NCBI GenBank assembly: GCA_045837725.1
Contig: JBEWZL010000211.1
Coordinates: 62,001-113,619 of the forward strand
Reading direction: 5' to 3'
Source: Vermamoeba vermiformis
Lineage: Eukaryota
DNA length: 51,619 nt
Made by a program: the position numbers and the translations under genes
Shown: one piece after another, positions 2,704 to 30,359 of the stretch
Layout: every line of letters starts with the position of its first letter
Numbering within the stretch: position 1 is the stretch's first letter
The notes under the pieces: model-generated
The model's database searches: none
What the model was told of the DNA's origin: nothing
Seen by the model: only the letters and a program-made list of their open reading frames with translations

Positions 2704-3125
2704 AGTTTCGAACATCACAATTCACATAATTGTTCCACGACGTCGAATAAACCAAAATTACCCGAATATTATTTTATCAATATTTATTTTTTCGATGCCA
2801 AACTAGGCACACAAGGCGCATTAAAACTGTTTCCTGCAACTCTTCTGCCGGATCCCACGCCACCAAGTGTCAGTCCTATTAGTTATTTATTTTTAGCTAG
2901 TGCCAAACGCCACAAAGTTTACTTCTTACACCAAAGTTGGCAAGGTAAGCGTCACTGTACTGTAGTTATCCGATCCCAGAATAGTGAGAAAAAGATGATA
3001 ATATTATTAATTTTAAATGATACGCAAGGTTAAGTAAACCAAGCGATGGTACTAATATCGCGTTATTTATAGCAGCTTTCAGCGAAAATTGAGATCGATT
3101 CCAGATCCAAATTACCAACGACAAA

Positions 3126-6100
3126 ATGACAAGCTTCAACGCTCAATTAATCTTGATTGCAGTATTTATCACATGCTCGCTTGGTCAGCTTATAATTCAG
3201 AACTCAACGCTCACTGCACCACGAAAAAGTATCGCATCTGTCGTTTTGGATGACTCCGTTTATTTTATCGGAGGCTTTGACACTGAATACATCGCAACAT
3301 CAATGATAGAAGTGTATAATATATCCAATGGCAATTGGAGCACAACGACGATGTCATCTCCTCGCGGATTTATAACTCCGATCGTGCTCGACCCAAATCT
3401 TTACCTCATCGGTGGCTATGACATGATCAGTCTACCCTACATCTACTCGACTACTGCAAGCGATTTCATCCTGCTAACGAACTCGTCTGGACCAACCGTC
3501 CGCAATGTCGATCAGATCGCAATTTTTAATTCAACGCTGGTGATCGTTGGAGACGGCTCTATAGACTTTTTGGATATTAATACGAAGCTATGGTCACATA
3601 ATGAAAGCTTGGTGCAATTAATGAATCAATATCCCGATACAACTGTCATTGTGGCCGAAAACGTCATCATTTTTTTGGCGCCAAATCAGACTACTTCAGC
3701 ATGGACCTATAACGTTCTTACGACTCAACTAACTCAATATAACAACGTACTCAACGGTACAGTTGGAGCAAACGTTAGATCCGACCATTCAAACGGCGTT
3801 GCGTTCGTCACATTTAGCGATAGATCCGTGGCCTACAATGTAGCACAAAACACGTGGTTCACTTTCTACGACATGCAAATTGACGCTGTGGCCCATGCTG
3901 GCAACTACTCTTTTGTTCACGGCCCAGGCTTTGGACTTCAATTTTACGGCTGGAAAGACGGAACGTGGGGCTACAACATGGGAGCGAGCACAATTACGCT
4001 CTATTTCACTGTAGGCCATTACTTTTGCTTTGCTAAAGGCGATTACCTTTTTGTGAAAACCGCCAACATGCAGTCATTCTTGGCGTCATTTACAACGAAA
4101 TCCCCGTTGACCAGACAACCAGTTGGAGCAGCACTAAGTGACCTAGAATATATTTTTGCAGATCAAAGACCTACGGACAATCTTATAGTAGTCTATCTAC
4201 TCTCGATTCCAAATCAGAGCCTCACAGAGATATACAGCTCAAGTTCAGATGTTAGCAAGATCTTCGCACTGGATAGCAACAGAGTCGCAATTTTTATTGG
4301 CCAATCAATGCTCATTTACGACAATTCACTACAAACGATTTCTAACAGCTCAATCGACTTCATTCCAACGTACTTAATCAGCGATCAATTCGTGTCATTG
4401 ACGAGTTCATTCTCGATTGCAGATCCGTCAAGCGTTGCAACTTTCATGAACGGTTTTTCGGCTGATCAAATGGTTGCATATCAATCGGGAGATTCACTAG
4501 TCGTCATGTCAAAGTCAGCGAAACCGCGTTATTATACTTCCGTGGATATGTACAACTATAGAACTCATCAATGGACCTTCAATGTTACAGACGTTCCTAG
4601 TTTGTTTGGCCGGTCGGTTGGAAGCGCAGATCCAGCCTATTTCCAATTTTTTGCCGCAGCAGTAGTCGAAGACATAGTACTCTTATGGAATCAAAATCCA
4701 TTAGCAACGTACAATTTGACAAGTCACCAGCTAATAACGTCACTTTCAGCATCGACGCTGCATCCAGCTTTCGGCGACGGATCAATTTTCACTTTGGAAC
4801 CGGTTATTGATCGATCAATTTATTTCTATAATACTGGTGACGACTATTTTAATACAGTTGATAGTCAGACACTAGCGCAATCAACAACGATAACAATTTT
4901 TGCGGACGGAGGAGAGACGCAATCCATTTTACAGCAACGAGTCAAATACAACAACAAGATCTACGCACTAAGATACAACAATGCAACGTCACTATTCGAT
5001 GCTATATATTTTTTTGATCCATCTATCAATCGTTGGGACTCAACTATTTTGCCATTTGCTGTTCCTCACGCAGCAATGACGCTCGCTGAAGATCTGATAC
5101 TGGTTTTCACCTCCAACTCATCACTGTTTTATCTTTATATGCCCACCGGCTATTGGAATCAGATCGACTTCCCATATAATTTTATGCCATCTGTGGCGAG
5201 TGTCATCGACTCGAAGGTCATCGTCGGCGGAGGTCTGGATCCGGTCACAAACAAATTCAACGATCAAGTCCTCGTGCTCAATATCTCTTACATAACTGTG
5301 CTAGCCCAATATTTTTCTCCCTATGCCAATTCTACAGCACCAACGAGTGACGGGCTTCTGACCACGGACAGTCCCTTGATCGCAGCTATTGTTGTGCCAA
5401 TTGTTGTCGTCGTAGCGGCTGGCGTGGCCTTATTGATAGTTCTGATACGCAAGCGTGACAAGAAGAACAAGAGCAGCGTATCGATGGTTGGATTGGAAGC
5501 AAAGTACGGACAGTGGTTCACGCCATTCAGCGACATTCAGTTTGGTGATCAGCTCGGTCAAGGAGCGAATGGTCAAGTGTTCAAAGGTCGTTGGAACAAC
5601 ACTGAAGTTGCATTGAAAGTGAGTATGACACAAGCAAACACGAGTGTCATTTCAGAACTGTCACTGATGATCAACATGCGACCACATCCAAACATTGTTC
5701 AACTTCTTGGTTTCAGCGTTCATCCCGAGACCAATTCAATCATTCTCATCTTAGAGTTTTGTAACGGAGGATCATTAGACAATACGTTATTCAGGGAAAA
5801 GAGCCAAGCCGCGTTGACACTTGAACGAAAGATCTCATGGATCAAAGGCGTTGCCCGTGGCATTAGTCATTTGCACTCGAATAATGTGGTTCATAGAGAT
5901 ATAGCAGCACGCAATATCTTGCTTCATAACGACGAAGCGAAAGTGACGGACTTTGGCATGAGTCGATTGGTTGATGAACAGCAACAACGAGGAACAACCA
6001 AATCCGAACTTGGACCAATCAGATGGATGGCGCCCGAAGCACTGAAAGATAGGCAGTACTCGTCTAAATCAGGTAAGTCTTTGACACGTGTCACTTCTCT

Positions 6101-6409
6101 TTTTTACGAACGCAAAATTTTTATAATGACACTTTTTGACATGGACTCTATTGCAATCAAGTTCTAATATAGAAAATAGATGCATGGTCGTTTGGTATTC
6201 TGATGTACGAAGTGATCGCACAACAAGAGCCTCACATCAATGAAGATCCGATCACGATTGGAAGGTTGATCCGAGATGAAGGTAAAACACCAGAAATACC
6301 TTCAACATGTCCACCAGCACTTGCGACACTGATGCAACACTGTTGGAAGATGAATCCTGAAGATCGGCCTTCATACGAAAGCTTGTTGGAAGAACTAGAA
6401 CGGTTGTAA
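3126..6409 (+). CDS. Single-pass receptor kinase: signal peptide, kelch/beta-propeller ectodomain, TM, tyrosine-kinase-type catalytic domain (exons 3126-6072, 6180-6409)
   Basis: Hydrophobic N-terminus; kelch-like VYFIGG..VYN..W and LYLIGGYD; TM followed by RKRDKK; kinase motifs LGQGANGQV, VALK, HRDIAARN, DFG, GPIRWMAPE, DAWSFG; GT-AG intron 6073-6179. Confidence 0.92.
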
Positions 6410-6646: not shown

Positions 6647-8882
6647 ATGGAAGAGATTTCTGCGCTGGTTATCGATCTTGGGTCAAGTAAGTTGCTCAAC
6701 GATTAACTAATACGGCACCCTGCAATTAAATTGATATAAATTAATACAATGTGAATTATTGTTGTAAACGGAGAGAAATGTCTTTCAATCCGTTAACGAA
6801 AAATTTAGAATTCTAAAATTAAATTCTAATATTTGTAAAATTATAGTCATGCTTATTAAGCAATTATATATCATGCCAAACGTGCAATACTGATAATTTT
6901 AATTTTAAAGGCATGGTAAAAGCCGGATTTGCTGGCGACGATGCTCCTCGTGCTGTATTCCCAACTGTAATGGGCGCCCCTCGAAATCCGTCAGTAATGG
7001 TAGGCATGGGTCAGCCTAATAATTGTAAGTGTTTAAATCCGATGGACTTAAAGTTTTGGATCACATCTGATTTTGTTTGGCATTCAGATGTTGGCGATAT
7101 AGCTCAATCTTTGAGAGGCATGCTTTCGCTAAAGTACCCTATTGAACATGGTAAGAAAAAATATTAAAGGCTCTCAAACAATTAATTTTCGGATGTAGTT
7201 ACTTTCGGAACTATTTAAGGCTTTAATATCGATTTTAAGCGACATAATTAATATCACATATTATTTTCACTTATAAAATGTCGAAATCTATCGTTTATTC
7301 GGCTTAGCCTAAAAGATCTAATCCTGTTTTAGGCATTATAACGGAATGGGATTGCATCGAACGAATTCTTCACCATACATTTTACAATGAATTACGCGTA
7401 GCACCGGAGGAACATCCGATACTGATGAGCGAACACCCACTCAGTCCTAAACGGAATCGCGAGAAACTTTGTCAAGTCATATTTGAAACTTTTAGTGCGC
7501 CTGCTTACTATTCTTCTATGGCTCCTATTCTCGCTGTATATGCTTCAGGCAGAAATACAGCCATGTGCGTGGATATTGGTACGTCTATTCTAAAATTAAT
7601 AGTTTTTACTATCGTACTGGACCACAGATCTAGTGCTACAAAATCGATTGGCGGTTAATATAGATATTACATGTATAAAAATATTATTTTTATTATGAAA
7701 AATTAATTACCACAGAATAGGTTGAATTTCTTTTGATGTTTTTATTGTTTTTTTTGTCGGTGGATCCACACTTGATCCGACGACTTCCCTTACTTTACCT
7801 TAATACTCTTAATATTGCCATTATTATTTCCTATTGTAGCCGGTATCCTTTAGTGTTATCAGTACTTATTTTGGTATTAGGTGACGGAGTGATGACAGTA
7901 ATGCCCGTCGCAAATGGGTACACGATCAAACCCACAATTAGACGCGTAGATCTCTCAGGACGAAATTTAACCGACCATATGACAAGAATGCTCGCTGAAA
8001 GGGGGTAAGATGAATGATAAAATAATCTATAACGACAATAAGATAAATTTCGGTCGATCCCGAAAAAATATTCCGGATCAGATCTAATACTTTTTGCTGC
8101 TTTTTTTTGCGTTGAAGCTTGAAACGATCATCAGAATAGTTATTAATGAATATATTATGCAGGTACTATCTGAATCGATCCTCAGATTTTGAAGCAGTGC
8201 GAGATATGAAAGAAAAGTTGTGTTACGTGGCACTCGATTATGAGGCTGAGCTGTACAAGTCAACGCAATCGTGTGAACTTGAGAAGAAATATGAATTGGC
8301 TGACGGTCAGGTCGTTACACTAGGTGAGATATGAATTATGATTTTGATTCGATCTGTTTTCATTGGCAGCAGTGCTTACGATGACGAAAATATTTCCTTT
8401 TCCTCTGATCAAACAATTTTAATTAATTCTGCGAATTTCTAAATAATAATAATTAAGCTGCAATAAGCGCTGGATTAACCTTTTTTTTTGTCATAGGGTA
8501 CGAAAGATTTGCATGCCCCGAAGCACTATTTAGACCCTGGATGATTGGTCGAGAAGGCACTGGCGTTCATGAACTAGTATTTGATGCAATCACATCCGCT
8601 TCACGCGACGACCAGAAGAATTTATTAGGAAATATATTGTTATCCGGTGGATCTACAATGTTCGACGGCTTTGCTGATCGCATGCACAAAGAAATGGTTG
8701 CTTTGGCTCCAGCGTCCGCTGCAATCAGAATTGTAGCGCCACCTGAACGAAAGTATTCGACTTGGATCGGCGGTTCTATCTTAGCGTCTTTGTCTACCTT
8801 CCAACAAATGTGGATATCAAAGGAAGAATATGACGAATCTGGTCCTCAAATCGTCAATAGAAAATGTTACGACGGCTATTAA
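6647..8882 (+). CDS. act: Divergent actin / actin-like protein, about 7 exons
   Basis: [98 protein letters not shown] introns between these blocks. Confidence 0.95.
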
Positions 8883-12218: not shown

Positions 12219-12253
12219 ACCTCGTATGATCCGAGTCCGTTGTTTCAACTCAA

Positions 12254-12324
12254 GGCGCTATAGCTTAGTGGTAGAGCACCGGTCTCATAAGTCGGTTGTC
12301 TTGGTTCGATTCCAAGTAGCGCCT
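12254..12324 (+). tRNA. trnM-CAT: tRNA with CAT anticodon (elongator Met type, atypical)
   Basis: Cloverleaf: GGCGCTA/TAGCGCC acceptor, GCTT-AGTGGTA-GAGC D arm, CCGGT-CTCATAA-GTCGG anticodon arm, CTTGG-TTCGATT-CCAAG T arm; downstream T-run at about 12337-12342. Confidence 0.88.
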
Positions 12325-12556
12325 AATTTCAATTTCTTTTTTTGCTTTTTGGTTTTCGTTTCACACAAACAAGCTGAGAAAACTTTCTGCTATTTTTCGC
12401 AGATTCGAAGCTCAACATTTTTCGCTCGTGATACTAACCTTTCAGTTTTAAACAACAAACAGAGTGACCACTTGTCTGCTCTACTATCTCACAAAATCTT
12501 ATTGCCCCGCATGAATATTGTCTCAACATCGAATTTTAAAGTTACAGATTACGAAA

Positions 12557-13981: not shown

Positions 13982-15702
13982 ATGTTGGTGCTGTATGTTG
14001 CGCTCTTGCTTGCTTTTGGTTATGGCTTGATCCAGCTCGAAAAGATATTGCCTAAATTATTTAAAAAGGCTAAAATAAATATATCCTATAATAGTCCACC
14101 AAAAGCGATCGATTACCATTTACCGGAGGTAAGATTGTTACGGGATCTAGATCTTGGCGCCAGAAAATCTGGAGTTATTTTTAAAAATTCAGTACTACAA
14201 TATTCGAACTATATTAACTTAATACTATTTTTTCTTGCAGGATGTTTTGCGAAATATATTTTTAATGCTGGATCCCGCCTCCGTCGCACGTTGCGAAACG
14301 GCCAGTAAATACTGGCACGTGACAATTTCCACGCATAAAATATGGAATCAGCTATATAACAAGTACGCAGTATTATTTTACATAATTAAGCTAATAATAT
14401 CAAATTAGATTTTTGCGTCAAGTAGATCTGAACCCTGAAGTGCACCAAAAGCATCAACAAGTTAATAGACTTATCGTTACGAAAGAATTAGCGTTAGAGT
14501 ACGAGGTAAGAATAGCATAATATGTATTTTTCGAATACTAACTCTTCGTTCACTGAACAGAACGATTACGAGTGGAAACATCGAGTGATCGACGCGTATC
14601 TTGCGTGGAAAGACAACAAATCATTGTTCGAATTTAAATTCGATAATTGCTCGATGTTGTACGAGCACATGACCGAGGGAAGGTAAAGGAGTCTCGATCT
14701 TGAGTTTGTACGCTAAATTTAATTTGATTAGGTCCGTTATTAAGACTAGAGTTGTATATTGGTATGGAAAAGACGACTGCCATTACTTTACCAACAGCAG
14801 CGCGAATGAATTCGACTTCTTATCGGTCCCGAAACAAGCCTTGGACAAATTCAACTTGAAGCTCGACAAAAAAGACTTAGTTGAGCTTGTGTTCGACTTC
14901 AGTAACAATTTTGACGTGCTTCATTTTATTCCTGACGTCAAGCAAGCTCGGTTAATCAAAAAGGCTCCGAAAGCTCTTGGCGGTACGTGTTTTTTCCAAA
15001 TAAGGAAAGTCCTCATATTTTGTTGTAGGTCTTGTTGTATACGCGCCAATCGCTATCTATCAGCTGATACTTGTATTGGCACCTGCGTTGGTCTATGATG
15101 CATCGCGAGTGGCTCTTTTGGCTCAAGCTATCAGATTGATACTGTCCGTTGCATTCTACGTTGGATCTGTCTTAGGATTACTCAATTTGCTGGTACGATC
15201 GATCATCAAAACGAAAACTCAAAGTTCTACGTTGGTCCCTGTGTCGCTACTCTACGTCATCTCGGTTGCTGGCTATATCGCGGCTGTATTCTTTCCAACT
15301 CAGGCGATGTCTTGGGTCATCTTTGGCGTCGCGCTCATCTTATTTGCACTCTACGAAACGTTGTTTGGATTGCTTCTGTTGGACGAAAGCGAGGCCGCGT
15401 GGAAGTCTTTGATCGTTTTAGTGCCTCTATGGACTTACATGATCAGCTGGACACGTGTCTTTTCGATGGTGCACGATGGCTCTCTCATTCATTTACTCTT
15501 ACGTAGCTTTGGATTGTTCGCTGTAACCTTCGTATTCTTTGCGTGGGTTTTAACAGTGAGATTTATTCTACGAGAGTCCAATCACACTTTACAAAAATGG
15601 AAAGGCGGCGTGCTTGAGCCGCTTCGCTATTGGTTCAAAATTTGCTTTTTTGGCGTGTTCATTTTAACGCTATTGAATGGTAGTCGTATCATTCAATATT
15701 AA
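13982..15702 (+). CDS. F-box protein with an N-terminal hydrophobic anchor and a C-terminal multi-pass membrane domain
   Basis: Spliced F-box HLPE|DVLRNIFLMLDPASVARCETASKYWHVTISTHKIW; the last exon (about 15029-15702) has around 6-7 hydrophobic segments. Confidence 0.75.
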
Positions 15703-18682
15703 AATGGAGCTTCAAACTTCGTGTTGGCGTCATATTGCGTACGAAGAACAATGGCGCAAGGACCGTGGAAGAAGATCTGGCGGACTGGACCTTCGATCTC
15801 GATCTCGGGTGACTTTAGTGAAGCATCTGTGCGGAACGGCTCATCTTCTGACGTAAACAAGAGCTCAAGGGTGCCCTTAAGGTATGGAGCTAATTCAGGT
15901 ACCTATTTTAGAACGTTAGATCTTGTGCTGAAAAGTTGCAGGATCGACAAACTTTACTTTTTCCAAATTGACGCCACCAGCATTTTCCATATTTAGAATA
16001 GCAATGACTGCACGATTGTTATCTTTGTTCTTTCGTACTACGCAAATAGTATGATTTTGAATAACGAAGATCTCGAATCCTTTGCGGTGATGGTTTTTCA
16101 TGCACGAGTCCGTGTTTCTAAGCTCTAACAACTTCTTGTATAGACTAAGGACTTGAGAGTGCGGCTTCTCCAAAGACTCGTCCCACTTCAATCGGCTGTT
16201 CGCGAACGTTGAATGGGCCTGGGGATCTGGAATTGACTCGCGGATCTTGGGGTCTGAAAATGCAGAGAAGTTTGCAAACTCCTTTCTGCGACCTAGATTG
16301 TACGTACAATTAATACAAGCTCTATTAAATACAACCAGATATAACTTACCTTCGGTAACTAATTTGCCTAGTTCAGGGTTGTGATCGGTGAAGAAACAGA
16401 ACGGCGTACTGGCAGCCCATTCTTGGCCCATGAACAACATGGGAGTCTGCGGGAGCAACAATAACAACGAGCTATATCGATATTGATTAATATCTAAGCG
16501 ATAATTCGGGTTGCAAAGTAAGTACCTCGCAGCTTTGTATGCAGCTGGGCTAATTTCAGCATTAATTCGTCCACCGAGAGCTCTATTGCCGACTTGATCG
16601 TGATTTTGAATGCAATACTATAATATATTATGCATAATATGTTAGTTAACGTGATTCAAATTACAGGCGATAATTTTCCGTACGACAAACTGAGCCATAT
16701 CATCAATAGCTTTCGGATCTGTACCGCGTTTCTTGTCGCTCGTAACAAGCTTTTGGCCAGCATAGAACCAACCTAGCGCAGTATAGGTAAGCGTATGTGT
16801 ATATATATATTTATATATCCTCTGAGAACGTACCTTGTTTTACGGTTTGCACGAGGTCCTTTGGACTGCCAGTAAATTCGCGGAAATAGCTCTCGTTATC
16901 TTTTGCAAGCATAACTAAACGTGGCAATCAATACATGATTTCGTATACTAATTTTGCTCTGCTAAACTTACCTCGAACTTGATGGTGATAATCATCAGTC
17001 CAGAGACCGTCAAGGCCGATTCCGTCGGGAATAGGTGCAACGAGCTTAGCTTCGTTGCGGTCGTCTTCAGCATAGAACAAAATCTTTTTGTGCATCGAGT
17101 TGCTGTTGCCTAGTTTAGAAAAAAATAAGTTAATTCTGGATCCAGCGTTCTCGAGATTATGATTTCTCTTACATGTTTCGATAATCTCTCGCAACAAGTG
17201 CGGAGTAGAATAATCGACTATAGCATGCGTTGCGTCAAATCTAATTCCATCAAAGTGGAACTCTTCGATCCAGTACAACGCGTTCTCGATGAAAAATCGT
17301 CGCACTTGTTTAGCATGTTTAATCAAATCTTCCGATGATTCCTTCAAATTATGCTCTGAATATAATAATTAATAATTATTCAATAACAGGCAGAATTACC
17401 GGGACTAGATTCGATCCGAAACAGATCTGATCTTACCTTTACGTTCTTCTTCAGTGACTGGCTTCAAGTCTACGTTAGGAGCTTTGCCCCAAGGAGTCGT
17501 ATGACGTGCAGAGAGTAATAAGGACTATAACATTCCAAGTAATTGCCATCAGGACCCAAATGGTTGTACACGATGTCGATCAACACAGCCAAGCCTAGGA
17601 TACAACGGTAAGATTAATATTCATATGAATATATGCTACTCGGCAATGTGACTAACCTTCATTATGAGCAGCATTGATTAAATGTCTCAGTTGTTCAGGA
17701 GTACCGTAGCATCTAGCAGGTGCGTACAAACAAACTCCGTCGTAGCCCCAGTTACATTGACCCGGGAAATCAGCCAAAGGTAAGATTTCAAGCGTATTTA
17801 CGCCTATTTATAATTAGGTTAATATACGAGAGTTTAAGTTTGACAGATCCGTTACCTAATTCTTTGTAATATTTCAATTTATGTTCGAGACCTTCGTACG
17901 AGCCTTCCGGAGTGGCAGTTCCTATTCAAATCAAACGTTTAATATTATATCATTATTGCCATATTATATTTTCTTTACCTAAATGCAATTCATAAATGAC
18001 AACATCATCGCGTGGGATATTGGTCCATTTTTGATCGGTCCACGCGAACTTTGAATCAACCACTTGCGATACTTCGTGTACGCCTTCTGGTTGGAATCTA
18101 TAATAACTCAAGTTAATTATTCTGGAATTAGATCCTGCAATGTTTTTTGTAACGGACGAAAAAATTGTATTGCAAAGCTTGATATCATATCATTAGCTAT
18201 TATTTTTAATTTTTAAAAGAATTATAGCGTATAATAATATTTTAAGTAGGTAGAGGGCTCGTCTAAGACGTACCTTGAAGCTGGATCTGGGAAGGGACCT
18301 TTGCCGTCGACTACGTATTTGTAGAATGTGCCCACTTTGGCTTCCTTAAGTTCTATACTGAAAATACCAGTAGTTTCGTCTTTTTTAAGTTGGTGCTTCG
18401 ACGCTGGATCAGATGCGGTGCTCTTTGGAAACAAAAAGTAAGTACATCGATATAATACAAAGATTTTAGTTAAATTTAAATGTACAATAATTATTTAAGC
18501 GATCGATTAGTATTTAGAAAGTTTTAGAGCAAAATATCTCGATCTGAAAGTTTTTTTACCTTGTCATACAAAACAAGTTCAACTTTTTGACTGTTAGGAC
18601 TCCAAACGGAGAATCTAACACCTCCATTATCGAGAGGAATTGCTCCAAAAGTTTTACCGTATTTTCCTTGTCCGCTAAACAT
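15699..18682 (-). CDS. treZ: Malto-oligosyltrehalose trehalohydrolase (GH13, TreZ), about 13 spliceosomal introns
   Basis: Spliced motifs: [134 protein letters not shown]. Confidence 0.95.
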
Positions 18683-18998
18683 TTGATCAGATGTGTTTTT
18701 TTGGTTTCTATATAGAAAAAAATTGTAAAGAAAACCTCGGTACGATTTTTACTGCGCAAAAACGACTTTGAGACTCGCGTTGTTGGATCTGTGTAGTAAC
18801 AAATGACAACAAAAAGATTATTTGACGAGATCTCAGATCTGTCGAGTTTTCCCAGCGAATCCGGTGAAATTTGGTCGTGTTCGTCGTTTCGAGAGTGTGA
18901 CGCGTCTGAAAATTGACACGAAGCACACATTGCAACATGTTTTGGTTCTAAAAATCTTTTTATTTTATTTTCAACTACGTAAAAGCTACATCCACAAA
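18683..18998. promoter_or_regulatory. Probable bidirectional promoter for treZ and treY
   Basis: Only 316 bp separate the divergent start codons (treZ ATG at 18682, treY ATG at 18999). Confidence 0.6.
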
Positions 18999-21900
18999 AT
19001 GTATCAAATCCCGACTTCTACTTACAGACTTCAATTCCATAAGGACTTTACGCTGAAGAAAGCAATCAAAATCGTCGATTATATTCAAGAGCTTGGTATT
19101 TCAACAGTTTATTCGTCTCCTTTGCTGAAGGCCAGAGCCGGATCCACTCACGGCTATGATTGCGTCGACCATAATCAATTAAACCCTGAAATTGGTACCA
19201 ATGATGACTTCGATGCTTTTGTAGCACGATTGCATCAAAGAGGTAAATAATCAGGGCTCTCTTATGTAGCTTTATTTTTTCTAATTTTTATGCAGATCTG
19301 GATCTTCTTTTGGATATTGTTCCGAACCATATGGGTGTCAATGATGTTAATAACAAGTGGTGGGTTGATGTATTGGAGCACGGCGAGTCCTCTATCTACG
19401 CTCATTACTTCGACATTAATTGGCATCCGCGTTGGCAGCATCTGGCGGGTATGTACAAAGAAATTTCATAAAAATCTGCCACTCTTATAACATATTTAAT
19501 GATATTGTAATATATCGGCACCGATATGAAACGAAATGGCGTCAATTTAGCATTCTAATTTTGGATCTTTAGGAAAGGTTATTTTGCCGGTACTTGGTGC
19601 GCCTTTGTCCCAATGCATTGAAAAGAATGAGCTACAATTAATTTTAAACGAAGGTATGTATTTAGAATTGAATAATCAAAGCGCAAAAACTAAATCCGAT
19701 CCTGACCCTAACATCTTTTTCGTACAGAAAACCTTTTCAAGCTGAAATATTACGGCCTCGTATTGCCTATTAGCTTGTGCACTATCGAGCCTTTATTCCG
19801 CGAAGTTATCTCGCAATGCCAATCTCGCAACATGGATTGCAATGAGATCCAACAAATCGAGCAAGAGTTGAAGAAGATTATGAGCCACGACGACCCTCGT
19901 GTCTGCGAAGATAAGGAAAAACGACTCCATAGAATGGATTTGGTTCATGACGTCAAGTCTCGATTGCAGCATTTATTGCGAACTAACCAATCCGCTAAAG
20001 AAATTTTGGAAAGCAGCTTGATCGCATTCTGCCAGCAAAAAGAAAAGTTCTGGGCCTTTATAAGACAACAACCGTATTATTTATGCTTCTGGAAGGCCGC
20101 TACTGATGAAATCAACTACAGGTAAGTCACATCCGCATTCAACTCCGAAAAAGTTATTCTAATTATTCATTTAGACGATTCTTTGATATCAACGAGTTAA
20201 TGTCGTTACGTATTGAAGATGAGGACGTTTATAATGACTCGCACAAGTTGATTTTTGAGTGGATAAAGCAAGGCAAAATTGCGGGCTTGAGACTCGATCA
20301 TCCTGACGGCCTTAAAGACCCTCAACAATACTTCACTCGCTTGCAAAACTCCATTTCAGAGCTATTGCAAGATACTTATGGCGCATATACGGGTATGTAA
20401 TAGCAATTCAGTCCGTTACAAAAAATACTGAACAAATTTCCTTTTTAGGCAAGTCATTCTACGTTCTCGTTGAGAAAATCCTTGAAAAAGGCGAAGAATT
20501 ACCTGGTGATTGGGCTGTTGACGGAACAACTGGCTACGATTTCATGAACATTTTGAACGGAGTTTTCGTCGCGACTAAACACTTTGAGGTAAGTCTTTGC
20601 AAAAATTTACTGGGTATTTTTGCAATATTAACTATTTTCTATATTAGGTCATGAAGCTAATTTATCAAAAGTTCATTGCAAACCAAAAAACCGACGCGAT
20701 CTCGCTCGACTTCCCGCATCTGCTTTACAACTGCAAAAAACTTATATTGACCATGTCGCTCGAAAGTGAACTTACGACATTAACCGACGCACTTTACAAC
20801 ATTTGCAAGAAGACTATGCAGTTCTCTGACATCACTTTCAGACAATGCAAATTGGCGCTGGAAGAGTACATCGCCTTCTTCCCGGTCTATAGGACCTATT
20901 TGTCGCCTAGCCACGAGTTGCCAAATGACACGGAATTGCACCAGATCGAGAGCACAATCTCCGCTGCTCGGCAAAAGAACCCAGCACTCGATCCTATCTT
21001 GTTTGATATGCTTGAAAGTATCCTCCTGCACAAAGTTTATATTGACAGAGGTACCGTTTTTTTTCTTCGTGGCACTAACTTTGCAACAATTTTTAACGGT
21101 TCTTAATTAGACGAACGATTGTTCTTCGTTGCCAGATTGCAACAGCTGTTGGGTCCTTTGATGGCGAAGGGTCTCGAAGACACTGCCTTTTATAGATATT
21201 TCATTTTGTGTTCACTGAACGAGGTCGGCGGTGATCCCAATAACTTTGGATTAACTCTCAATGACTTCCATAAGGAAATGATTCTCAGGTAAGCATTCAA
21301 CAATGAGTACTTATCACGTGATCACGTGCCTAATGATTTTTTTTGACAGATCCAAGACTTTCCCTCTTTCCATGAGCAGCACTAGCACGCACGATACTAA
21401 GCGCAGTGAAGATGTTCGTGCACGCATCAACGTCTTGTCTGAAATTCCGTTGTCTTGGAGCTCATTCGTGACACGTTTGTCGGAGATCACGAAAGATTTC
21501 AAGAAGCACGTGCCTGGCATTGGCATGTGCCCGCAGCCCAACGACGAGTACATGCTTTATCAGACTTTGATTGGCACGTGGCCGTTTGAAATTTCAACTC
21601 CCGAATGGAACGAGTACATCAAGCGAATTCAGGCTTACATGACCAAAGCCATCAAAGAGAGCAAAGTCTATACGTCATGGACGGTGCCTAATCAAAGCTA
21701 CGAACAATCGATCAATAATTTCGTGGAAAGAATTTTGTCGGACGGATCGTTTTTGAGCCTGTTCAACGAGTACCAAAAGTACATTGCACAAGTCGGAAAA
21801 TTGAACTCGCTTTCGCAGCTAGTCTTGAAGATGACTCTACCTGGTGTGCCTGATACATATCAAGGCACTGAATTGTGGGACTTAAGTTTGGTGGATCCGG

Positions 21901-22527
21901 ACAACAGACGACCCGTGGACTACACTGCTCGATCCAAAATGTTGAGTTCAATCAAGACCCATGCAAACGATCCGAATATCATTGACGAGCTTTGGAAGAG
22001 GTACGTATAAGTCATATTATATTATAGTAATATTTTGAGGCTGATCCAAGATCTTTTTTAGTTCGAACGACGGTCGCATCAAAATGTACACTTTGTACAA
22101 AATGTTGGCCTTAAGAAACAAACACAGCGAGGTGTTATTGCGAGGTCAATATATTCCTGTTGAAGTCACTGGTCCTAAGCACCATCACTTGATTGTAAGT
22201 TGGATTCGTACTGGATGTTGATCCACAAAATCTAATTTAATTTTTTTATAGTCTTATATTCGTGAGCATAACGGCTCTCGTATTTTGGTTGTTGCTAGCA
22301 GATTTTTCACGCATTTGTACGAAGAAAATTTGTCGAGCAAGTACTGGGCTGAAACTTTCTTGCATTTGCCAACAACGGTCATGTCTAATCAACGATTGCA
22401 CGATGTATTAGCAAACAGAATGATCGATATTGCGCAAGAACATATTAATTTTGATCAACTTGAAGTACCCAAAGTTTTGGATCGATTCCCGATTGCGGTT
22501 TTCGAGTTTGAAGCTATCCACGCTTAA
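18999..22527 (+). CDS. treY: Malto-oligosyltrehalose synthase (GH13, TreY), about 10 spliceosomal introns
   Basis: [139 protein letters not shown]. Confidence 0.96.
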
Positions 22528-29256: not shown

Positions 29257-29733
29257 TCAATGTTTCAGATTCGGCCAGTACGTGGCGTGTAACGGCGCGC
29301 CCTCCTCTTCCAAGATAGGTCCTTCGACTTTAACCACTCTCGCCTTGCCTTTTGCGAATATTTCTCTGCACGGAGTTAAAAAATCATCGCCGGCGTACTT
29401 AGCCAGCGTAGTTTCAGAACAGCAGTACACGACGTGCGAGATCCCGCCCCAGTACATTCCGCCAGAGCACATCATGCATGGTTCAGTACTAGTGTATAGT
29501 ATAGACTCGCGGAGTACTTCAGGAGCGATGGTTTTGCCGGCTAAGCGGACCAGATTCGTTTCTGCGTGACCGGTCGGATCTTTATCCGAATTAACTGTGT
29601 TTTCAGCTTCGAGTATAATCTTGCCATTATGTACTAATAATGCTCCAAAAGGATGATTTCCATGCTCTACTGCGAGTTCAGCTAACTTAATAGCTCGTCG
29701 AATAAATTCGTGGTGGTGTTGTGAATCCGTCAT
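29257..29733 (-). CDS. Zn-dependent nucleoside/nucleobase deaminase (CDA superfamily, TadA/guanine-deaminase-like), intronless
   Basis: GNHPFGALLV, DPTGHAE, LYTSTEPCMMCSG; uninterrupted 158-aa ORF. Confidence 0.92.
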   Translation of the reverse strand: MTDSQHHHEFIRRAIKLAELAVEHGNHPFGALLVHNGKIILEAENTVNSDKDPTGHAETNLVRLAGKTIAPEVLRESILYTSTEPCMMCSGGMYWGGISHVVYCCSETTLAKYAGDDFLTPCREIFAKGKARVVKVEGPILEEEGAPLHATYWPNLKH

Positions 29734-30359
29734 TTCTATTTAATTGTTATTGTTAGTACATGAACGATGCGATAATAACTACGGTAATATATAAATATTT
29801 GTTAACAATAGGGAGTTCTGAATTCGTTTCGCGTTGAACGCGATAAAAGATTTTATTAACAGTGCTGGTGATTAATTTATTGTAATAATTCCATAATTTT
29901 AAAATTATCTCTGATATCACCGATAATCGTTATATATAACCTCGATCAAAATAGTCGAAAGGAATTTTTATTTTTTAGTTACTATAATATATATTTTTCT
30001 TAATTTCTCTGTTGTTTGCAGAAATTACGAGTATTCGTTTCGTAATATTTGAATAAATATTAGTATAATATATTTATAATATTCTCATGCCGGTAGATGT
30101 TTCGTTGTGGATGTGATAAATAATTTGACTTACTTCAATTGAATTAATGATACAACTGATATGTGGTGTTTTGTAATATTTGCACTATTGTTTTATATAA
30201 CAAATAATAAAGAACAATTAGGAGGTGACTTGATGTCACATCAAATTAGGCGGTTCACAATCAAGGGGAAATTTCTTAGCTTAGAAACACGTGAACAACG
30301 TTTCCCGACAGAAAATCTTGTTTAATTTACATGCGATAACTAAGTGACCACAATACGTA

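Follow-up and report, generated by a model that had tools for sequence, protein, structure and literature searches.

An intron-rich, head-to-head treZ/treY gene pair of probable bacterial descent in a eukaryotic, probably amoebozoan, genome

Results

Two GH13 genes diverge from a 316-bp spacer

The 51,619-nt stretch of DNA analyzed here (the window) is eukaryotic, with a guanine-plus-cytosine (GC) content of ∼39%, and between 15.7 and 22.5 kb its stop-to-stop open reading frames (ORFs) are pieces of two GH13 enzymes encoded on opposite strands. The minus strand carries treZ, the gene for maltooligosyltrehalose trehalohydrolase (15699..18682), and the plus strand carries treY, the gene for maltooligosyltrehalose synthase (18999..22527). 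Both were modeled with a purpose-written protein-to-genome spliced aligner: treZ by spliced alignment to five TreZ proteins together with transcript joints, and treY by spliced alignment to residues 1-955 of P0001, a 955-aa JGI metatranscriptome protein from an intronless 3486-nt contig. The genes lie head to head, diverging from a 316-bp spacer between their start codons (18683..18998 by the gene-model coordinates), presumably a shared bidirectional promoter region.

The 11 exons of treY are separated by 10 GT-AG introns of 53-124 nt, located by spliced alignment on the plus strand at 19243-19295, 19449-19572, 19654-19727, 20122-20174, 20393-20448, 20589-20647, 21051-21110, 21289-21349, 22001-22061, and 22195-22251. 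The treY product, of 956 aa, is free of internal stops and aligns along its whole length with P0001 at 91% identity. Identity is also 91% to P0248, and it is 43.6% to P0002 of Planoprotostelium fungivorum and 41.7% to P0255 of Physarum polycephalum. The plus-strand pieces match the NCBIfam TreY equivalog model TIGR02401 and PRK14511 relatives. Five treY ORF pieces score 108, 19.7, 98, 58.4, and 263 bits on TIGR02401, a rough sum of ∼547 bits with the curated equivalog cut-off at 498.65 bits, and P0001, used as a 91%-identical proxy for TreY, reaches 940.2 bits over model positions 1-835 of 838; by both routes, then, TreY passes the family threshold. The largest exon matches solved maltooligosyltrehalose synthases (e.g., 5zcr and 1iv8), and GH13 regions II, III, and IV align with 5zcr, both via window exon 9 and via P0001. 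The GH13 catalytic-region motifs, with the Asp/Glu/Asp triad, are readable in the spliced protein. Here and in TreZ, the residues that we call catalytic are those that we take to hold that role in the GH13 motifs.

On the minus strand, treZ runs from an ATG at 18682 to a stop at 15699-15701 in 14 exons. Its 13 GT-AG introns, of 52-176 nt, were placed by spliced alignment and transcripts at 18559-18423, 18273-18098, 17978-17922, 17855-17804, 17656-17595, 17436-17356, 17172-17110, 16971-16915, 16833-16773, 16683-16618, 16525-16472, 16349-16293, and 15957-15903. Read through a one-base break at 17513/17514, discussed below, treZ gives a product of 668 aa. Homology-only models of treZ bridged this frameshift with false introns such as 17505-17354 and were discarded; the transcripts show 17436-17356. 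The minus-strand pieces match NCBIfam TIGR02402, the TreZ equivalog, and whenever a piece matches TreZ-type models, TIGR02402 ranks first among its families. Six treZ ORF pieces score 130, 83.1, 74.7, 43.1, 40.1, and 24.5 bits, together ∼395 bits with several exons unscored and some of the scored pieces containing in-frame intron sequence; the curated cut-off is 538.8 bits, and the clade-mates of the window's TreZ, P0130 and P0121, lie above it at 613 and 631 bits. Pfam CBM_48 matches treZ exons 1 and 2 (E 8e-7 and 0.0024), and Alpha-amylase is also matched among the GH13 pieces; an N-terminal CBM48 is followed by the GH13 catalytic domain. Regions II and III (the latter YAEDDRNE) align with the solved TreZ 1eh9, and VYNH and QNHDQVGNR are readable in the model.

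An original prediction for this DNA had named the two enzymes, with the CAZy labels GH13_26 (TreY) and GH13_10 (TreZ) that we retain as its naming, and had placed about 10 introns in treY, about 13 in treZ, and a spacer of 316 bp between them. The gene models give exactly these intron counts and this spacer, and the identities are borne out by TIGR02401 and TIGR02402 on the exon pieces and by motifs that align with solved enzymes. Its further claim that the GH13 catalytic motifs are kept agrees with the alignment of regions II, III, and IV to solved TreY and TreZ structures.

Transcripts of close relatives lack the introns

A search of sequencing runs returned 19, of which 16 contained part of the stretch, and we compared X1, X2, X6, and X17 with the window. 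Contigs of X1, X2, and X6 skip predicted introns of both genes, and in X17 nine raw RNA reads span the last treZ intron. These contigs and reads pass over the introns, which shows that close relatives transcribe treZ and treY and splice the products; the splicing expected from the original prediction is thereby seen in relatives. The joints displayed cover 9 of the 13 treZ introns and 8 of the 10 treY introns, with 11 further joints outside the display; treZ introns 1, 3, 4, and 9 were placed by homology alone.

Three joints had no GT-AG at the tool's own cut (17105/17169, 20587/20648, and 21285/21348). The first yields the same joined letters as the canonical intron 17172-17110 combined with a synonymous TGC>TGT change in the relatives. 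The other two joints contain one or two additional letters in the contigs, which we take to reflect changes adjacent to the junction.

One base is missing from treZ as assembled

Comparison with the relatives' transcripts places a missing base between 17513 and 17514, in treZ exon 6 (17594-17437, minus strand). The X2 and X6 contigs (one of one in each run) have one extra base behind 17513 relative to the window, and the X1 contig breaks off at 17513, where its loose end fits the same addition. The window reads TAC-TCT-CTG on the minus strand at this point, and the relatives' extra base restores a conserved 18-residue TreZ stretch. As assembled, the spliced treZ frame ends prematurely at codon 242 of 668, ahead of catalytic regions II-IV. 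Reading the break as X leaves ∼426 open codons after it, and residues 8-655 of the resulting protein share ∼48% identity with bacterial TreZ. The expectation that both genes are full-length therefore holds for treY, with its intact 956 aa aligned end to end with P0001, and fails for treZ in the assembled form.

It is possible, though on balance we doubt it, that the deletion is real and that treZ is a fresh pseudogene, in which case the pathway would be broken here, only TreY would be made, and no trehalose would arise by this route. The base carried by the X2 and X6 contigs is indeed absent from the window, the site is a two-base run and not a long homopolymer, and the as-assembled frame ends before regions II-IV. 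However, the long open frame downstream retains the conserved motifs once corrected, the GT-AG ends are intact in 13 of 13 introns, and the break is the sole frame-breaking difference from the relatives in the ∼4.9 kb of coding sequence of both genes. An assembly error fits the data equally well, and we consider it somewhat more likely that the missing base is such an error than a true, very recent inactivation.

Other insertions or deletions relative to the relatives are 10 nt absent at 18707 in the spacer (X2) and a 3-nt in-frame deletion at 19903 in treY exon 4 (X1).

Both enzymes fall among bacterial sequences

Searches with single exons returned thousands of bacterial homologs and few eukaryotic ones. 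The eukaryotic TreY sequences are P0002 from Planoprotostelium fungivorum, named only "Alpha amylase, catalytic subdomain," and the EukProt transcript P0066 from Physarum polycephalum, which clusters with GenBank BDX96135.1, a record already annotated as maltooligosyltrehalose synthase. The eukaryotic TreZ is the Phalansterium solitarium transcript P0121 (EukProt EP01116_P003463), and a search with it found no further eukaryotes among its best 120 matches. Look-ups in a protein atlas gave bacterial-only clusters for TreY and generic eukaryotic clusters for the neighboring kinases. Exon-sized members of the P0001 cluster sit on contigs of up to 445 kb.

For phylogeny, we fetched 80 named bacterial and archaeal loci and extracted TreY and TreZ, giving a TreY tree of 88 rows (LG+G4, quick search) and a TreZ tree of 75 rows (posterior mean site frequency model, quick search). 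In the TreY tree, the window, P0001, Physarum, Planoprotostelium, and P0006 form one clade with a support of 100 in the Shimodaira-Hasegawa-like approximate likelihood ratio test (SH-aLRT). This clade is nested within a 71-row, otherwise bacterial clade (support 97), and the other 83 rows of the tree are mostly named bacteria. In the TreZ tree, the window, P0130, and Phalansterium form one clade (support 98), itself nested in a 26-row clade (support 99) with sequences labeled Planctomycetota, Acidobacteriota, and Nitrospinaceae.

The most economical reading of these trees is a transfer from bacteria into an early amoebozoan lineage, followed by intron gain; we favor this direction because the eukaryotic clades are small and have bacteria on several sides. 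It agrees with the old horizontal acquisition and subsequent intronization that had been proposed from the window, in that each enzyme has one eukaryotic clade set among bacterial sequences. The rarity in eukaryotes that this proposal implied is weakened, with TreY present in Physarum and Planoprotostelium and TreZ in Phalansterium. Judged by sequence, the genes are common to at least three other amoebozoan lineages already in public databases. At 42-44% identity to the Physarum and Planoprotostelium proteins, the window's TreY is a separate, deep lineage.

Beyond the small eukaryotic clades, only bacteria are found among the nearest relatives in named genomes (TreY, 35-43% identity; TreZ, 33-46%), a point in favor of bacterial contamination or a chimeric assembly. 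We regard that explanation as having a negligible chance of being correct: the introns, the spliced transcripts, and the flanking genes exclude it. The two genes contain 23 GT-AG introns, relatives have spliced transcripts of both genes, and eukaryotic genes (Kelch/TKL kinases, actin, and cytidine deaminase) lie on both sides in the same contig. There is no step in composition at the treZ/treY pair, where exons have a GC content of 0.43-0.45 and introns 0.29-0.30 in a window at 0.39, and the median intron lengths of the two genes are 61 and 59.5 nt. Bacterial-type loci look different. In each of 80 loci from a metagenome scan, treY is uninterrupted and its product is 36-44% identical to the full TreY of the window, and no intron-bearing treY was found among these 80 or the 80 genome loci fetched.

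Head-to-head order is unlike that of sampled bacteria

We determined bacterial gene order in the 80 named loci from homology-based gene boundaries, which replaced a count from stop-to-stop ORFs that had overstated adjacency. treZ lies within the fetched flanks of treY in 43 of the 80 loci and is absent from the flanks in the other 37. Where both genes are present, they share a strand in 37 of 43 loci (within 300 nt of each other in 23 of these) and lie on opposite strands in six. Two of these six pairs are convergent, and the four divergent ones are each separated by more than 300 nt. None of the 43 loci has a divergent treY/treZ pair within 300 nt. The window's genes, being on opposite strands, do not form a prokaryotic operon of co-directional, adjacent genes in one unit, and as a tight head-to-head pair they are unlike the sampled bacteria. 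That an operon was rearranged into a bidirectional pair is only plausible.

Three Gemmatimonadota loci (L095, L108, and L124) have divergent treZ and treY genes, and among named bacteria their TreZ proteins come closest to that of the window (45-46%). We considered whether a donor resembling Gemmatimonadota had passed on the divergent order and rejected this, as the genes in those loci are 2.4-2.8 kb apart and the eukaryotic clade is unjoined to them in both trees.

The spacer may provide shared regulation of the two genes. Alternatively, the linkage may be incidental, the genes being neighbors by descent or chance, with separate promoters and neither co-regulation nor a functional cluster. 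The 37 bacterial loci without treZ in their flanks indicate that treY and treZ can work unlinked, which favors this alternative. Against it, the genes encode consecutive pathway steps and start 316 bp apart, and both transcripts occur in the same runs (X1, X2, and X6), although this last point is weak, the runs having been found using this stretch. We view incidental linkage as rather unlikely.

Neighborhood of the pair

The ordinary eukaryotic neighborhood described in the original prediction was identified around the pair as kinase, actin, and deaminase genes. Two or three Tyr/Ser-Thr (TKL-like) kinase genes lie in tandem on the plus strand (3093-6164 and 1296-2339, also 5-280), the largest being a single 1024-codon ORF with Kelch repeats at its N terminus. 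They are followed by actin-family exons at 7308-7655 and 8457-8879 (plus strand; Pfam Actin E 1e-26 and 8e-46), and four ORF pieces in the window match Pfam Actin in all. A tRNA-Met (CAT) at 12253-12325 (plus strand) is the sole Rfam or ARAGORN match in the window. On the minus strand, an ORF at 29260-29739 encodes a cytidine/deoxycytidylate (dCMP) deaminase zinc-binding domain (E 5e-22). In the scan of 83 window ORFs, single ORFs match 7tm_3 (family C G protein-coupled receptor), Bmp/PnrA-like, GlfB_C, and PAAT-like families, and no treX/glgX was found beside treZ/treY.

Immediately downstream of treZ, a hydrophobic 232-codon ORF (15004-15702, plus strand) is rich in transmembrane-like stretches and has no Pfam match. 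Its stop codon overlaps the convergent treZ stop at 15699-15701, and treZ transcripts of relatives reach at least 15646. If this ORF is a real gene, its 3' untranslated region and that of treZ must overlap fully.

Discussion

We consider it probable, at roughly 0.8, that the locus belongs to the nuclear genome of a eukaryote, probably an amoebozoan, as a real gene pair encoding TreY and TreZ enzymes of bacterial descent whose genes have gained introns. Several points weigh against this reading, beginning with the interrupted treZ frame described above. The assignment to Amoebozoa is drawn from the named eukaryotes found in the TreY and TreZ clades. No run contains half of the stretch's words, which indicates that this strain is absent from the 19 runs. 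The transcript comparisons accordingly come from relatives, mostly 95-99% alike for the X1, X2, and X6 contigs and more distant, at 90-95%, for X17. Only X6, a root metagenome, is on record as RNA, the RNA label of X1 and X2 being a guess. Both trees are unrooted and were built without bootstraps.

We propose that this gene pair could support a route from glycogen to trehalose. Under such a scheme, the cell's own phosphorylase and debranching enzyme would release the substrate from cytosolic glycogen, TreY would turn the alpha-1,4 bond at the reducing end of maltooligosaccharides into an alpha,alpha-1,1 bond, and TreZ would then cut free trehalose off. Both enzymes would act in the cytosol, a location suggested by the lack of an N-terminal extension before the first conserved domain in either protein. 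The bacterial genes would have been acquired before the split of the Physarum, Planoprotostelium, and present lineages, after which they would have gained 10 and 13 spliceosomal introns and taken on the base composition of the host. The enzyme activities, the glycogen substrate, and a role for the trehalose in stress or cyst formation are predictions from sequence in this scheme.

A fuller version of this scheme would make the pair a true eukaryotic metabolic gene cluster of prokaryotic origin, an amoebozoan, glycogen-fed second trehalose route built from ancient bacterial genes, preserved over hundreds of millions of years in the form of a tightly linked, divergent unit with a shared 316-bp promoter, and induced when glycogen is turned into trehalose for cysts or spores. 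We offer this fuller version tentatively, as a possibility with the odds against it.

The enzymes might instead have changed function in the eukaryote, serving, for example, in the degradation or remodeling of glycogen or of a cyst-wall glucan and not in net trehalose synthesis. The long branches (0.34 plus 0.67 for the TreY lineage and a 0.64 end branch for TreZ) hint at such a change. However, the catalytic and substrate-binding regions are still alignable with solved TreY and TreZ, the relatives exceed the NCBI equivalog cut-offs, and both partners of the two-step route have been kept together, all of which makes a change of function quite improbable.

The gene products resemble the known bacterial and archaeal enzymes, such as those of the Sulfolobales (5zcr, 1iv8, and 1eh9), in being two GH13 enzymes with the same domain order and conserved catalytic regions. 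They also group with the Physarum, Planoprotostelium, and Phalansterium proteins, sharing clades with them (support 100 for TreY and 98 for TreZ) and passing the same NCBIfam equivalog models. Unlike the bacterial and archaeal genes, those in the window are nuclear, are interrupted by spliceosomal introns (10 in treY and 13 in treZ), and point away from each other across a 316-bp spacer, whereas bacterial treY and treZ are mostly co-directional (37 of 43). The TPS/TPP (OtsA/OtsB) route has the same end product as TreY/TreZ, trehalose; its enzymes are unrelated to TreY and TreZ, and its substrates are UDP-glucose and glucose-6-phosphate, not glycogen-derived maltooligosaccharides.

The TreY/TreZ pathway is described, citing Sulfolobus, in PMC1769515, and PMC11046441 gives its chemistry and its need for linear glucans from GlgP and TreX/GlgX. 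By analogy with these systems, the same two-step chemistry would be expected here (PMC11046441, PMC1769515). These two sources treat TPS/TPP as the eukaryotic trehalose route and describe TreY/TreZ in bacteria and archaea, and PMC8277472 reports no TreY or TreZ homologs in metazoans. We found no paper on TreY/TreZ in Amoebozoa or in any eukaryote, in a search that had subscription journals and supplements outside its reach, and a publication behind Physarum BDX96135.1 may exist.

The novelty of the locus is limited, since the genes are already in public databases, one of them correctly named, and this is not a unique acquisition. What is new is a further member of a known enzyme pair, one that branches deeply and belongs to a little-described group of hosts. 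The gene structure, together with the spliced transcripts of relatives, identifies a eukaryotic lineage that owns and expresses TreY/TreZ genes. If the history proposed here is true, the pair would be a clean case of two consecutive genes of a bacterial pathway that were domesticated, gained introns, and are still together. If the route is active, it would link glycogen stored by soil amoebae directly to a desiccation protectant and so would bear on the survival of cysts and spores.

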